Part shown: positions 13,416 through 15,898 of the stretch, piece after piece
Numbering within the stretch: position 1 is the stretch's first letter
Layout: each line of letters opens with the position of its first letter
Assembly: GCA_949840905.1 (NCBI GenBank)
Contig: CATKXW010000001.1
Span: 75,499-139,498 of the forward strand
Length of the DNA stretch: 64,000 nt
Source of the DNA: an uncultured Eggerthellaceae bacterium
Lineage (GTDB): Bacteria; Actinomycetota; Coriobacteriia; Coriobacteriales; Eggerthellaceae
Reading direction: 5' to 3'
Notes under the pieces: model-generated
The model's input: the letters and a program-made list of their open reading frames with translations, nothing else
Database searches by the model: none
Told to the model about the DNA's origin: nothing
Translations under genes and position numbers: made by a program

Positions 13416-15221
13416 CTAGAACTCGAAGTTCTCGTCGCTCTTGGCCGCATGCGTCTGCGCCTTCTTGGCCGTGCGCATGAGGAACTCCTCGTTGGTATCG
13501 GTCTGCTTGAGCGATTTGATGAGCATGTCCATCGAGCGCTCGGTGTTGTTCATGTTGCCCAGGATGCGGCGCACGGCCCAGATCAGCGGTGCCTCCTGCG
13601 GATCGAGCAGCAGCTCCTCTTTGCGGGTGCCCGACGACACCGGGTCGATGGCCGGGAAGATGCGACGATCGGCCAGGTTGCGATCGAGCTTGAGCTCCAT
13701 GTTGCCGGTGCCCTTGAACTCCTCGAAGATGACCTCGTCCATCTTCGAGCCGGTATCGATCAGCGCTGACGCGAGGATGGTGAGCGAGCCGCCGCCCTCG
13801 ATGTTGCGCGCCGCGCCCAAGAAGCGCTTGGGAGGATAGAGCGCCGTGGAATCGACGCCACCGGACAGGATGCGGCCCGAAGCCGGCTGCGCCAGGTTGT
13901 ACGCGCGCGCCAAACGGGTGATGGAGTCGAGCAGGATCACCACGTCCTTGCCCTGCTCCACCAAGCGCTTCGCGCGCTCGATGACCAGCTCGGCCACGGC
14001 GATGTGGTTCTCGGAGGGCATGTCGAAGGTGGAGGAGATGACCTCGCCTCGAATGGAGCGCTCCATGTCGGTGGCTTCCTCGGGACGCTCGTCGATACCG
14101 AGGTACATCAGGTGCACCTGCGGGTTGTTCGCCGTGATGGAAGCGGCGATGTCCTTCAAGATGGTGGTCTTGCCGGCCTTGGGCGGCGACACGATCAGAC
14201 CGCGCTGGCCCTTGCCCACCGGCGCCACCAGATCCACCACGCGCGCAGTGATGGTGTTCTTGCCATGCTCCATGGTCATGCGCTCATCGGGAAAGATGGG
14301 CGTGAGGTCGGCGAAGCGGGGACGATAGGTCAGCTCGTCGATGGGGATGCCGTTGACGGAGAACACCTTCTGGATGGCCGCGAACTTCTCGTTGCTGCGT
14401 GCAGGCCGGGTCTGGCCCGTCACGTGGTCGCCACGGCGCAGACCGTTGCGACGGATGGTGGACAGGCCCACGTACACGTCATGGTCGCCGGGCAGATACC
14501 CGCTGGCGCGCAAGAAGCCATAGCCATCGGCCATGATATCGAGGATGCCCTCCACCTCCGCGAAGCCCTCGGCCTTCAAGATGGTATCGTAGAGCGAATC
14601 GATGAGCTCGGCCTTCTTCAGACCCGAGGCGTCCATGTTGTACGCCGCCGCGCGCTCGCGCAGGTCGGCCACCTTCAGCGCAGCCAGCTCTTCTTTCGTC
14701 ACGCTGGGCTGTATGGGCTGGTTGTTGTGGTTGTTGTTTCGCTGGCGGCGATTGTTATTGTTGTTATGCTTCTGGTTGTTCTGTTGGTTCTGGCGCCCGT
14801 TGTTGTTCTTCTGGCCGTTGTTGTGCTGATAGGACCCGTTATTGCCGCCGGATGTGCGGTTGTTCTTGCGCACCACGGTGGTCTTCTGCTGTTTGGGCTC
14901 CGCAGCGGACGCAGGGGCTTCGGCCGCTGGCGCTGGCTCAGGAGCCGCTTGTGCAGCCTCTGCAGCCGGGACCTCTTCCTCAGCAGCCTTCTTGCGCGGG
15001 CGGCCCCGCTTGGGCTTCTCGACCGGTGCCTCTTCAGCCTGGGGCTCCTCAGCCTTGGCATCCGCCCCTTCCTCGGGAAGAGGGTTCTTGCGCGGGCGGC
15101 CCCGCTTGCGCTTAGGGGGCTCGGCGGCGTCTGCTGCCTCCGTCTTCTCGGCGGCGCTCGTCGCCTCCACTACTGCTTCGGCAGCCTCAGCGGCTGCCGC
15201 ATCGGACTTTCTCGGGCTCAT
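13416..15221 (-). CDS. rho: Transcription termination factor Rho with a long N-terminal insertion
   Basis: 601 aa from the ATG at 15221 (SD GGGAGAAGG; ATGA overlap with the tal stop). The track start at 15242 is a TTG. C-terminal two thirds is canonical Rho (GFGFLR-like GYGFLRA, Walker A PPKAGKT, RecA-type core). The N-terminus has an Ala/Glu-rich region, two KRGRPRK motifs and an Asn/Gln-rich tract. Confidence 0.93.
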   Translation of the reverse strand: MSPRKSDAAAAEAAEAVVEATSAAEKTEAADAAEPPKRKRGRPRKNPLPEEGADAKAEEPQAEEAPVEKPKRGRPRKKAAEEEVPAAEAAQAAPEPAPAAEAPASAAEPKQQKTTVVRKNNRTSGGNNGSYQHNNGQKNNNGRQNQQNNQKHNNNNNRRQRNNNHNNQPIQPSVTKEELAALKVADLRERAAAYNMDASGLKKAELIDSLYDTILKAEGFAEVEGILDIMADGYGFLRASGYLPGDHDVYVGLSTIRRNGLRRGDHVTGQTRPARSNEKFAAIQKVFSVNGIPIDELTYRPRFADLTPIFPDERMTMEHGKNTITARVVDLVAPVGKGQRGLIVSPPKAGKTTILKDIAASITANNPQVHLMYLGIDERPEEATDMERSIRGEVISSTFDMPSENHIAVAELVIERAKRLVEQGKDVVILLDSITRLARAYNLAQPASGRILSGGVDSTALYPPKRFLGAARNIEGGGSLTILASALIDTGSKMDEVIFEEFKGTGNMELKLDRNLADRRIFPAIDPVSSGTRKEELLLDPQEAPLIWAVRRILGNMNNTERSMDMLIKSLKQTDTNEEFLMRTAKKAQTHAAKSDENFEF

Positions 15222-15898
15222 GCGTTCTGTACCTTCTCCCAATCCTTCAGGAATGCTTCAAGACCACGGTCGGTCAGCGGATGCTGTACGCACTTCTTCA
15301 GAATGCCGAACGGCACCGTGGCGATGTCGGCGCCCATCAGCGCCGCTTGGGCCACATGGTTCGCGCTGCGGATGGAGGCCGCGATGATCTCCACCTGCTC
15401 GCCGTTGACCGTATCCGCCGTGAAATCGTAGTTGCCTATGGCCGTCACCACGTCATCGAGCTGGGCCAGGCCATCTTCGGATATGTCGTCGAAGCGACCC
15501 ACGAACGGCGAGATATAACGAGCGCCGGCCCGGGCGGCCAGCACGGCCTGGGGCACCGTGAAGCACAGGGTCATGTTCACCGGGATGCCCTCGTCGGCCA
15601 GCACGCGCGTGGCGGCCAGGCCCTCTACCATAGTGGGCACCTTCACCACGACGTTGGGGGCGATAGCTGCCAGCTCGCGACCGTCGCGCACGATCTCGTC
15701 GCGGGTCATGGCCACGGTCTCGGCAGAGACAGGGCCGTCCACCAGCTCGCAGATGCGGGCGATATGCTTCGGGAAGTCGGCGAGCTTGCCGCCCACCCGC
15801 GCGTACAGCGACGGGTTGGTGGTCACGCCCGCGAGCGCGCCCCAGCTCGCGGCTTCCTCGATCTCGGCCAGGTCGGCCGTGTCCAAAAAGAACTTCAT
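15218..15898 (-). CDS. tal: Transaldolase / fructose-6-phosphate aldolase (short type 3B)
   Basis: 226 aa from the ATG at 15898 (SD GGAGGA). MKFFLDTADL...GVTTNPSL...VKVP signature. Confidence 0.88.
   Translation of the reverse strand: MKFFLDTADLAEIEEAASWGALAGVTTNPSLYARVGGKLADFPKHIARICELVDGPVSAETVAMTRDEIVRDGRELAAIAPNVVVKVPTMVEGLAATRVLADEGIPVNMTLCFTVPQAVLAARAGARYISPFVGRFDDISEDGLAQLDDVVTAIGNYDFTADTVNGEQVEIIAASIRSANHVAQAALMGADIATVPFGILKKCVQHPLTDRGLEAFLKDWEKVQNA

Follow-up and report, generated by a model that had tools for sequence, protein, structure and literature searches.

An Asn/Gln-rich, basic tract in the initial region of Rho from an uncultured Eggerthellaceae bacterium: features, retention among Coriobacteriia and candidate functions

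Disordered additions to bacterial Rho factors

The global pattern of transcription termination is set by Rho. In the Rho proteins classified as Type 2a, an "initial region" of more than 25 residues stands before the N-terminal domain (Moreira, Chyou, Wade and Brown, 2024, NAR; PMC11347177). Such a region is found in 47.7% of the Rho sequences of Actinomycetota, and the residues enriched in the actinobacterial additions are Arg, Asp, Asn and Gly (PMC11347177). Disorder and droplet promotion are both predicted for atypical Rho regions that carry APA, QN and RxR motifs (PMC11347177). The main text of the same study makes no mention of the Coriobacteriia.

The functions of several additions of this kind have been studied. 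In M. tuberculosis and Micrococcus luteus, a disordered, Arg-containing add-on located near the primary RNA-binding site was shown to raise the affinity of Rho for RNA and to permit the use of structured, G+C-rich Rut sites (PMC13650167; PMC11347177). These regions, which are insertions (M. tuberculosis Rho also has a short initial region), are polyampholytes rich in Arg, Asp and Gly and carry an EDDV motif. The disordered insertion domain of the M. tuberculosis protein is required to engage structured Rut sites (PMC13650167), and condensates of mycobacterial Rho form via additional regions (bioRxiv 10.1101/2025.08.28.672908). In Bacteroides thetaiotaomicron, Rho (BtRho) contains a KE-rich subdomain and an N/Q-rich "PLD" of 68 residues with a conserved cationic motif of 9 residues (Krypotou et al., 2023, 2026; PMC13269538). 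This PLD, which modulates condensation, shows a high propensity for RNA binding. Across relatives it keeps its composition but neither its length nor its sequence; on its own it is insufficient for RNA-driven phase separation, and it acts mainly as a negative modulator (PMC13269538). The Rho of Clostridium botulinum (Cb-Rho) offers a prion precedent, with a core peptide of 21 uncharged residues including two Phe (Pallares et al., 2016, PMC4703818; PMC11175392). This core, composed of N, S and F with 67% Asn and positive on both PAPA and pWALTZ, belongs to an insertion region in a low-GC Firmicute. Finally, no aggregation of B. fragilis Rho, a protein with a QN motif, was seen under the test conditions, and this motif by itself was stated not to be enough (PMC11347177).

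The rho gene and its Asn/Gln-rich tract

The window considered here is a stretch of 64,000 nucleotides from an uncultured Eggerthellaceae bacterium (assembly GCA_949840905.1, contig CATKXW010000001.1). It encodes the transcription terminator Rho (Table 1), which a profile search assigns to the family TIGR00767 / NF006886, with 603.7 bits for TIGR00767 against a cut-off of 509.45. The gene is the sole rho copy of the genome, and its 601-aa product, read from the ATG at 15221, is found verbatim in a public protein collection. This ATG overlaps the TGA stop codon of an upstream transaldolase/Fsa-like gene (ATGA), and a Shine-Dalgarno-like sequence, GGGAGAAGG, lies ahead of it at 15232-15240.

Table 1. 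Positions in the window of the rho gene and of the segments of its product
Feature	Residues	Position	Strand	Basis or remark
rho gene	1-601	13416..15221	minus	601 aa; TIGR00767, PF07497 and PF00006 matches
N-terminal initial region	1-175	14697..15221	minus	Ahead of the Rho-model alignment; predicted disordered (AF2)
AT-hook-like motif 1, KRKRGRPRKNP	37-47	15081..15113	minus	Best Pfam match AT_hook, below threshold
AT-hook-like motif 2, KPKRGRPRKKA	69-79	14985..15017	minus	Same sub-threshold AT_hook match
Ala/Pro/Glu-rich spacer, "APA"-type	80-113	14883..14984	minus	Sequence; APA class described in PMC11347177
TTVVRK mini-motif	114-119	14865..14882	minus	Borders the tract on its N-terminal side; kept in the closest genera
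Asn/Gln-rich basic tract	120-168	14718..14864	minus	22 N, 8 Q, 7 K/R, 0 D/E
RRQR basic motif	158-161	14739..14750	minus	Within the tract; matches the family-wide RRQRR-like cluster
Linker PIQPSVT	169-175	14697..14717	minus	P-S-V-(S/T) conserved; Pro in 37/38 orthologues
N-terminal helix bundle (SAP-like)	~176-222	14556..14696	minus	Weak SAP match; AF2 pLDDT 86-90
Rho RNA-binding (OB/CSD-like) domain, PF07497		14343..14555	minus	93.5 bits
RecA-type ATPase domain, PF00006		13632..14243	minus	86.7 bits

The Rho model aligns with the protein in one contiguous piece (protein 183-590 in a 608-aa numbering, model 3-412 of 415). With 175 residues ahead of the first aligned residue, number 176, and a single unbroken alignment after it, this protein is a Type 2a Rho. 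The tract, initially described as an insertion, is thus not one; it forms the end of a 175-aa region preceding the helix bundle, from which 7 residues separate it. An AF2 model, whose shallow alignment (43 sequences) leaves parts of the ATPase domain at low confidence, served here only to set the disordered N-terminus against the confidently modelled helix bundle and OB domain. Its pLDDT stays under 50 over most of residues 1-149 and over most of the tract, reaches 53-59 for residues 150-170, and is 86-90 in both of these domains. A low-confidence helix spans residues 155-164, over the RRQR motif.

The initial region contains two copies of KRGRPRK. For both stretches, the top Pfam match is AT_hook (PF02178), at 15.0 bits and E = 0.022, below the gathering cut-off of 17.4; the GRP core of these AT-hook-like motifs occurs in 13 of 38 Coriobacteriia orthologues. 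Downstream come AAPEPAPAAEAPASAAEP, NQQNNQKHNNNNN and, last, RRQR, an arrangement that, judged by eye, corresponds to the published order of the APA, QN and RxR motifs defined by MEME/MAST. As in other Type 2a proteins, an Ala/Pro-rich segment, a Q/N-rich segment and an Arg cluster follow each other in a region predicted to be disordered. Unlike in the published Type 2a proteins, KRGRPRK motifs are present, Lys stands beside Arg, and the tract is free of acidic residues.

The tract itself is made of 49 residues (N 22, Q 8, R 5, G 5, H 3, K 2, S 2, T 1, Y 1), with neither D/E nor any of I/L/V/M/F/W. Asn and Gln account for 61% of it and K/R for 14%; its net charge is +7, and that of the last 60 residues of the initial region is +11. 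The Asn/Gln-rich string quoted in the initial annotation is recovered exactly, and the span proposed there, 14705-14880, brackets the tract at 14718-14864. The lower GC content attributed to the corresponding DNA is also verified (0.51, versus 0.64 for both the gene and the window). This dip is confined to codon positions 1 (0.43 versus 0.65) and 2 (0.27 versus 0.45), with none at third positions (0.84 versus 0.85). Because GC3 is normal, the dip reflects amino-acid composition and not foreign DNA; an inserted fragment can be discarded since GC3 equals that of the rest of the gene and the Asn codons (19 AAC, 3 AAT) are host-like. Within the tract, the DNA shows short imperfect tandem repeats of 9 and 18 nt. 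That the tract arose by recent replication slippage alone was rejected, these repeats being only short and imperfect and the long Asn runs of the relatives mixing AAC and AAT.

The Asn-richness of the tract is far above chance. When the genome was scanned in all six frames, from stop to stop (1,975,200 bp, 21,548 segments), no other window of 49 residues was as rich in Asn: the tract holds 22, the next window 15, the following one 10 and all others at most 9. It also comes first for the sum of Asn and Gln, with 30 residues, the runner-up having 26.

Retention and variation of the initial region

An initial region is present in all 38 Coriobacteriia Rho orthologues examined, with a length of 49 to 403 aa. 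The shortest ones (49-71 aa) are essentially a polar, basic tract (N/Q/G/S with K/R) plus the basic motif. Over the last 60 residues, the median net charge of the 38 proteins is +9 (range 0 to +12), and N/Q/G/S/K/R/H represent a median of 77% of the residues. A basic cluster of the RRQRR type is found at a conserved position, 14-21 residues before the helix bundle, where K/R/H make up 42-71% of the residues; an RR.RR-like string occurs in half of the proteins (19/38) and RRQR(R) or RKQRR in 15/38. The polar module and its basic motif are thus retained family-wide. As in the BtRho PLD, composition is conserved among the 38 orthologues while length and sequence are not, and a short conserved cationic motif, here the cluster at -21 to -14 from the helix bundle, is embedded in the tract.

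The Asn content is far from constant, with 2 to 26 Asn per 60 residues across the class. Two genomes of the same genus (L002 and L003) have 11 Asn and are devoid of a block of ~17-19 residues that is common to the present Rho and to P0004. In the latter, which comes from a different species and is 80% identical across the whole Rho, the block RQNQQNNQKHNNNNNR is identical. Within the species, the only three Rho sequences of the collection all have 601 residues and are related by three substitutions, all located in the initial region; neither indels nor length polymorphism were found among these three sequences.

The idea, put forward in the initial annotation, that an Asn-rich tract has been maintained against the compositional bias of the genome holds in part. 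In its favor, a polar, basic tract occurs in 38/38 orthologues, GC3 is normal, and Asn content increases with GC3 across the orthologues (Spearman +0.38, p = 0.02, for proteins that are phylogenetically non-independent), an observation which, with the same reservation, dismisses AT-bias as the cause of the Asn-richness. Against it, length and Asn content vary even within a genus, so that the hypervariability among close relatives, named at the outset as an argument against the idea, is partly observed. Since the Asn content is itself unconserved, the selected property may be "polar and basic" rather than "Asn-rich". In that case, the very high Asn content seen in this species might have drifted neutrally inside a polar and basic constraint.

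Beyond the Coriobacteriia, the 150 residues upstream of the RNA-binding domain were considered at 48 other actinobacterial Rho loci. Pooled, they contain 18% R, 12% G, 10% D and 7% N, and several of these loci, of ~0.56-0.67 GC, hold 16-20 Asn per 49 residues. The view that actinobacterial Rho insertions are usually not Asn-rich is therefore inaccurate, the more so as Asn counts among the four residues enriched in them and as the QN motif has been reported in both initial and insertion regions of Actinomycetota (PMC11347177). The tract described here is one clear further example of a catalogued class of Rho add-ons, and reveals no new mechanism.

Possible functions of the tract

Considering the properties of the tract and those of the described systems, it is reasonably probable that it acts as an auxiliary RNA-binding arm of low specificity and as a tuner of the RNA-dependent condensation of Rho. 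In this model, the tract would be the module of the disordered initial region closest to the helix bundle. Each of the six protomers would offer a flexible, cationic Asn/Gln/Gly segment beside the crown of primary RNA-binding sites. Thanks to the RRQR motif and to its positive charge, the arm would help to capture nascent, structured and G+C-rich transcripts, and multivalent polar and cationic contacts would modulate the RNA-dependent self-association of the protein. We infer RNA binding and condensate tuning by analogy, the nearest working analogue being the Asn/Gln-rich subdomain of BtRho with its cationic motif. In both proteins, an N/Q-rich tract of conserved composition carries a conserved basic motif and follows a charged subdomain with short conserved basic motifs, and both organisms are gut anaerobes. 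However, the BtRho region separates the helix bundle from the OB domain, while the present tract comes before the helix bundle, and the upstream part is here Ala/Glu/Pro-rich with AT-hooks instead of Lys/Glu-rich. There is no sequence homology between the two regions; the resemblance would thus be convergent. As for the add-ons of M. tuberculosis and Micrococcus luteus, they share with the tract disorder, Arg residues and proximity to the primary RNA-binding site. Unlike them, the tract lies ahead of the helix bundle, contains no acidic residues and is far richer in Asn and Gln.

Alternatively, the tract might be a largely neutral, low-complexity filler that would count only through its disorder, its length and the positive charge it brings close to the helix bundle, the extreme Asn content being a lineage-specific expansion without a function of its own. 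The wide range of Asn content among orthologues, the 11 Asn and the missing block in L002 and L003, the short tandem repeats and the clustering of all three conspecific amino-acid differences in the initial region would all fit such a view. Yet the class of tract and the basic motif are retained in every orthologue, down to the minimal ones, and RQNQQNNQKHNNNNNR is unchanged in another species. Moreover, the Asn runs are interrupted by synonymous AAC/AAT changes, which means that they are not fresh slippage products, and the rise of Asn-richness with GC3 goes against mutational pressure. Such a filler is therefore rather unlikely.

A third possibility is the one suggested by the initial annotation, which called the tract prion-like. 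It might be a true prion-forming domain, as in Cb-Rho, where a prion-forming domain was reportedly also described by Yuan and Hochschild in 2017; a rare, heritable amyloid would then inactivate Rho and cause genome-wide read-through. The first part of this description stands. The best window of 80 residues in Rho contains 33 Q/N, for a threshold of 30 reportedly set by Michelitsch and Weissman (2000), and the tract has the Q/N-richness and the predicted disorder of prion domains. A PLAAC-style log-odds is strongly positive, at about +46 bits over 60 residues, this being an indicative value based on rough, approximate frequencies. The genome also encodes the disaggregase ClpB (1275.9 bits for a curated cut-off of 1232.1), a protein that is nearly universal. 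Like the Cb-Rho core, the tract is an Asn-rich, polar, disordered, N-terminal part of Rho. The amyloid part of the description fares less well. With 14% K/R and a net charge of +7, the tract is cationic, its longest run without K/R/D/E is 15 residues, as compared with the 21 residues with two Phe of the Cb-Rho core, and it stands ahead of the helix bundle. Nor was a core for amyloid formation in the sense of the pWALTZ concept, ~21 residues long and uncharged, found in the tract, which has one Tyr and no Phe, Ile, Val or Leu. On the PAPA scale, applied here in a simplified form (window averaging included) and indicative only, the best 41-aa window scores -0.06 for a threshold of 0.05, and the best 21-aa window +0.014, where the core peptide of Cb-Rho, also 21 residues long, reaches +0.165; on the same indicative scale, none of the 38 Coriobacteriia orthologues reaches 0.05. 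Close relatives differ in tract length and Asn content, and the behavior of the QN-bearing Rho of B. fragilis points in the same direction (PMC11347177). A prion-forming domain thus appears very unlikely, and capturing RNA or tuning droplets seems a better match for the tract than action as a prion.

Finally, it is most improbable that the A/C-rich, G-poor mRNA segment (44% A, 33% C, 18% G and 5% U in the sense strand) is a rut-like site inside the gene, used by Rho to attenuate its own expression, because, even if few windows of the gene show a C>G excess as strong as that of the tract (C-G = 20 per 78 nt), another window (offset ~858) equals or exceeds this excess, YC dinucleotides number 15 per 147 nt for a gene average of 22.5, and the relatives conserve the amino-acid class (N/Q/G/K/R, including G-rich codons) and not the nucleotide sequence.

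Returning to the RNA-binding and condensate-tuning arm, its interest lies in what disordered add-ons do elsewhere: they alter the RNA targets of Rho in M. tuberculosis and make its activity responsive to starvation in the gut in B. thetaiotaomicron. Abundant in the gut, the Eggerthellaceae metabolise drugs and isoflavones. It is tempting to imagine, quite unlikely as it is, that those of the gut have independently evolved the same design as Bacteroides Rho, where a charged arm bearing motifs (here AT-hooks) and an Asn/Gln segment with a cationic motif would form a condensate switch operating under stress or starvation, with possibly, in species of extreme Asn content, a heritable, prion-like loss of termination. 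Should RNA capture or condensation indeed be tuned by the tract and the RRQRR motif, the same strategy would be at work in a second gut lineage, independent of the first, and the module, which is limited to 49-70 aa in the minimal orthologues, would be compact and well delimited for experiments.

The rho gene and the initial region of its product

The rho gene was identified from its match to TIGR00767 (603.7 bits for a cut-off of 509.45) and from Pfam matches to Rho_RNA_bind and to the ATP-synt_ab ATPase. Its ATG overlaps the TGA of an upstream transaldolase/Fsa-like gene (ATGA). It is preceded by a Shine-Dalgarno-like sequence, GGGAGAAGG, located within the final codons of this transaldolase/fructose-6-phosphate-aldolase-like gene. 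The resulting 601-residue protein has a verbatim match in the public protein collection, where none was found for a 608-residue form starting at a TTG. Many relatives conserve the peptide encoded by the GGGAGAAGG stretch of the upstream gene (GLGESAERM...), pointing to a conserved tal-rho operon in which translation of the two genes would be coupled. The search for Rho covered 41 genomes, that of the window and 40 others of the same order, and each was found to encode it. The genome is that of an Eggerthellaceae bacterium, and the closest named Rho proteins come from Adlercreutzia, Enterorhabdus and Senegalimassilia.

From residue 176 (601-residue numbering) to the C-terminus, the alignment to the Rho family model has no break. 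Thus, the Asn/Gln-rich tract is not inserted between the N-terminal helix bundle and the RNA-binding OB domain, and the initial annotation, which placed it in an N-terminal insertion, has to be corrected: the tract is the final portion of a 175-residue region ahead of the bundle. This differs from the Rho proteins of M. luteus, M. tuberculosis, B. thetaiotaomicron and C. botulinum, where the insertion lies between bundle and OB domain. From its domain order, the present protein is a Type 2a Rho, the class having such an "initial region" ahead of the bundle (Moreira et al., 2024, PMC11347177). In this region, from the N-terminus, a head rich in acidic residues and Ala is followed by two KRGRPRK motifs resembling AT-hooks, by an Ala/Pro/Glu spacer, by a short TTVVRK motif and by the N/Q tract, which contains an RRQR; a linker, PIQPSVT, then leads to the bundle. 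Read by eye, this order agrees with the APA, QN, RxR succession reported for Actinomycetota Rho add-ons (PMC11347177).

In an AlphaFold2 model built on a 43-sequence alignment, pLDDT values are 28-41 for residues 1-149, 53-59 for residues 150-170 and 86-90 for the helix bundle and OB domain, so that the initial region is predicted to be disordered. The sole secondary structure predicted in it is a weak, low-confidence helix covering the RRQR, which could correspond to a binding-induced helix at a conserved basic motif. The two AT-hook-like motifs are near-identical to each other, and their top Pfam match, AT_hook, stays below threshold (15 versus 17.4 bits). Of 38 Coriobacteriia Rho orthologues with a reconstructed upstream frame, only 13 have the GRP core of the AT-hook; a longer form, RGRPRKNPLPE, is found again across genera (three copies in protein P0016, and also in P0031 and at locus L029). 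TTVVR(K/R), the sole aliphatic patch within the disordered region, is conserved in an Adlercreutzia-like clade (the window, loci L002, L003 and L007, proteins P0004, P0005, P0007 and P0049; TTIVRK in P0048).

Features of rho and of the encoded initial region, with positions in the window
Feature	Position	Strand	Remark
rho open reading frame	13416-15242	minus	ATG start at 15221
ATGA overlap with the upstream gene	15218-15221		
AT-hook-like motif PKRKRGRPRKNP	15081-15113	minus	Rho initial region
AT-hook-like motif KPKRGRPRKKA	14985-15017	minus	Rho initial region
TTVVR(K/R), short hydrophobic motif	14865-14882	minus	residues 114-119, N-terminal edge of the tract
Asn/Gln-rich tract	14718-14864	minus	residues 120-168, the string quoted in the initial annotation
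Predicted helix, NNNRRQRNNN	14739-14768	minus	residues 155-164, pLDDT ~53-59

Composition of the tract and its retention in Coriobacteriia

The 49-residue tract contains 22 Asn, 8 Gln, 5 Arg, 2 Lys, 5 Gly, 3 His, 2 Ser, 1 Thr and 1 Tyr. Acidic, aliphatic and Phe/Trp residues are absent and the net charge is +7. When the whole 1.98-Mb genome (61.5% GC) is translated in six frames, 21,548 stretches between stops measure 49 residues or more. Among these, the tract is the most Asn-rich 49-residue window, with 22 Asn versus 15 and 10 in the runners-up and at most 9 elsewhere; it also ranks first for Asn plus Gln (30 versus 26 for the next). The Asn/Gln-rich string first noticed in Rho is confirmed to the residue, and so is the lower GC of its DNA (0.51 versus 0.64). 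This dip is limited to codon positions 1 and 2, GC3 being 0.84 in the tract versus 0.85 in the remainder of rho, and Asn is encoded by 19 AAC and 3 AAT. The dip thus only reflects the amino-acid composition, and the DNA is native. The runner-up with 15 Asn belongs to a 342-residue open frame with a Gly/Asn/Ser/Asp repeat (…NGNNGDGSGNGSNNGNGDGNGSGSS…), on contig C1 outside the window, ~26 kb below the rho tract in plus-strand coordinates.

All 38 orthologues have an initial region, of 49 to 403 residues, and all carry a polar, basic tract immediately ahead of the bundle. The four shortest regions (49-71 residues) are essentially this tract alone, for example MSAKQQGQKQAASNKQNAGNKSQGQKQSGRQRRRSH... 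N/Q/G/S/K/R/H make up a median fraction of 0.77 of the 60 residues ahead of the E-V-x-P-S-V linker. The median net charge of this stretch is +9 (from 0 to +12), and it contains hardly any aromatic or aliphatic residue. A basic cluster of conserved position lies 14-21 residues ahead of the bundle, where K/R/H amount to 42-71%; an RRQR(R)/RKQRR string is found in 15 orthologues, and the window's RRQR occupies the same position. The number of Asn per 60 residues, in turn, is anywhere between 2 and 26. Two genomes of the same genus have 11 and do not possess a block of ~17-19 residues common to the window and to P0004, a protein of another species in which RQNQQNNQKHNNNNNR is identical. Three conspecific sequences, all of 601 residues, differ by three substitutions only, all within the initial region. 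Across the orthologues, conservation bears on a polar, cationic, non-hydrophobic class and on the basic motif, not on Asn as such.

Two side observations may be added. In Collinsella (loci L041, L043-L062), the tract ahead of the bundle is a mixed-charge Arg/Asn/Asp/Glu/Lys block (…RPNRRQHKRNDERNERKDERNNDRRNRQRDRKQRNKERNAA), nearly identical in ~20 Collinsella genomes and MAGs; it represents a markedly different solution, conserved in sequence, at the equivalent position. Besides, contigs L036, L037 and L042, labelled "Candidatus Melainabacteria", "Oscillibacter sp. MSJ-31" and "Acutalibacteraceae", encode Rho 65-69% identical to that of the window, with an Eggerthellaceae-type initial region on L036 and L037; mis-binning or mislabelling of MAG contigs is the probable cause.

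Possible roles of the tract

It had been proposed that Asn is maintained by selection against the compositional bias of the genome. Tract Asn rises with gene GC3 across orthologues (Spearman +0.38, p = 0.02, uncorrected for phylogeny), the fewest Asn being found in AT-rich relatives. Moreover, AAC and AAT codons are interleaved in the long Asn runs of relatives (e.g. N12 at locus L010), which are thus not fresh slippage products. Together with the normal GC3 of the tract, these data argue that Asn-richness is no mutational by-product, and to that extent the proposal stands. Selection on Asn itself is less clear, since it is the class that is conserved while Asn varies widely; extreme Asn content as a neutral filler within a polar/cationic constraint is plausible, if rather unlikely.

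A bona fide prion domain is more doubtful still. The prion-like character of the tract is retained in so far as its region is Q/N-rich by the classical criterion (33 Q/N per 80 residues), is predicted to be disordered by AlphaFold2 and has a clearly positive PLAAC-style log-odds (~+46, a rough value, indicative only, obtained with a yeast background and approximate prion-domain frequencies). The genome also encodes ClpB. However, Lys and Arg make up 14% of the tract, the longest stretch without charged residues is 15 residues and there is only one aromatic residue. On the PAPA scale, in a simplified computation that is indicative only, the best 41-residue window scores -0.06 and the best 21-residue window +0.014 for a threshold of 0.05, and all 38 orthologues remain below this threshold; the 21-residue amyloid core of C. 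botulinum Rho scores +0.165. This core is uncharged and 67% Asn, with Ser and Phe (PMC4703818). Furthermore, a QN motif by itself is reported not to make a prion. B. fragilis Rho, which has a motif of this kind, failed to aggregate under the conditions used, and the M. tuberculosis add-ons are predicted to be droplet-forming, not prion-like (PMC11347177). A nucleotide-level rut site is most improbable, as the tract is a C>G window of rho but not its strongest one and is poor in YC dimers.

The position, composition, charge, predicted disorder and family-wide retention of the tract are matters of observation; for its role, the best-fitting precedent is the disordered region of B. thetaiotaomicron Rho. 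The 68-residue Asn/Gln-rich "PLD" within that region carries a conserved positively charged 9-residue motif, is conserved across the genus in composition but not in length and sequence, has a high propensity to bind RNA and tunes the condensation that depends on RNA and ppGpp (PMC13269538). In addition, M. tuberculosis Rho needs its disordered insertion domain to engage structured Rut sites (PMC13650167), and mycobacterial Rho forms condensates through additional regions (bioRxiv 10.1101/2025.08.28.672908). By analogy with these cases, we propose that six cationic N/Q arms surround the primary RNA-binding crown of Rho, where they would enhance capture of structured, G+C-rich nascent RNA and also modulate RNA-dependent self-association. 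We therefore lean, with some reserve, towards an RNA-capture arm that would also tune Rho condensates.

Relation to other actinobacterial Rho proteins

The view that actinobacterial add-ons are Arg/Asp/Gly-rich rather than Asn-rich is half right. In 48 actinobacterial loci from outside Coriobacteriia, the stretch of 150 residues preceding the RNA-binding domain contains 18% R, 12% G, 10% D and 7% N. However, several loci of ~0.56-0.67 GC (Acidimicrobiaceae MAGs, Paeniglutamicibacter, Rhodoluna) reach 16-20 Asn per 49 residues, and Asn is among the enriched residues of Rho add-ons, for which a widespread "QN" motif has been defined (PMC11347177). The tract thus belongs, as a clear and extreme case, to an already published class, Type 2a Rho with a QN motif, and the features specific to Coriobacteriia do not amount to a new kind of system. 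From the orthologue comparison, what is worth recording for this class of bacteria is the polar, basic tract found in every orthologue, with its RRQRR-like motif, the minimal initial regions and the frequent AT-hook-like motifs upstream. These motifs pose the question of whether Rho would be tethered to AT-rich DNA or to RNA.
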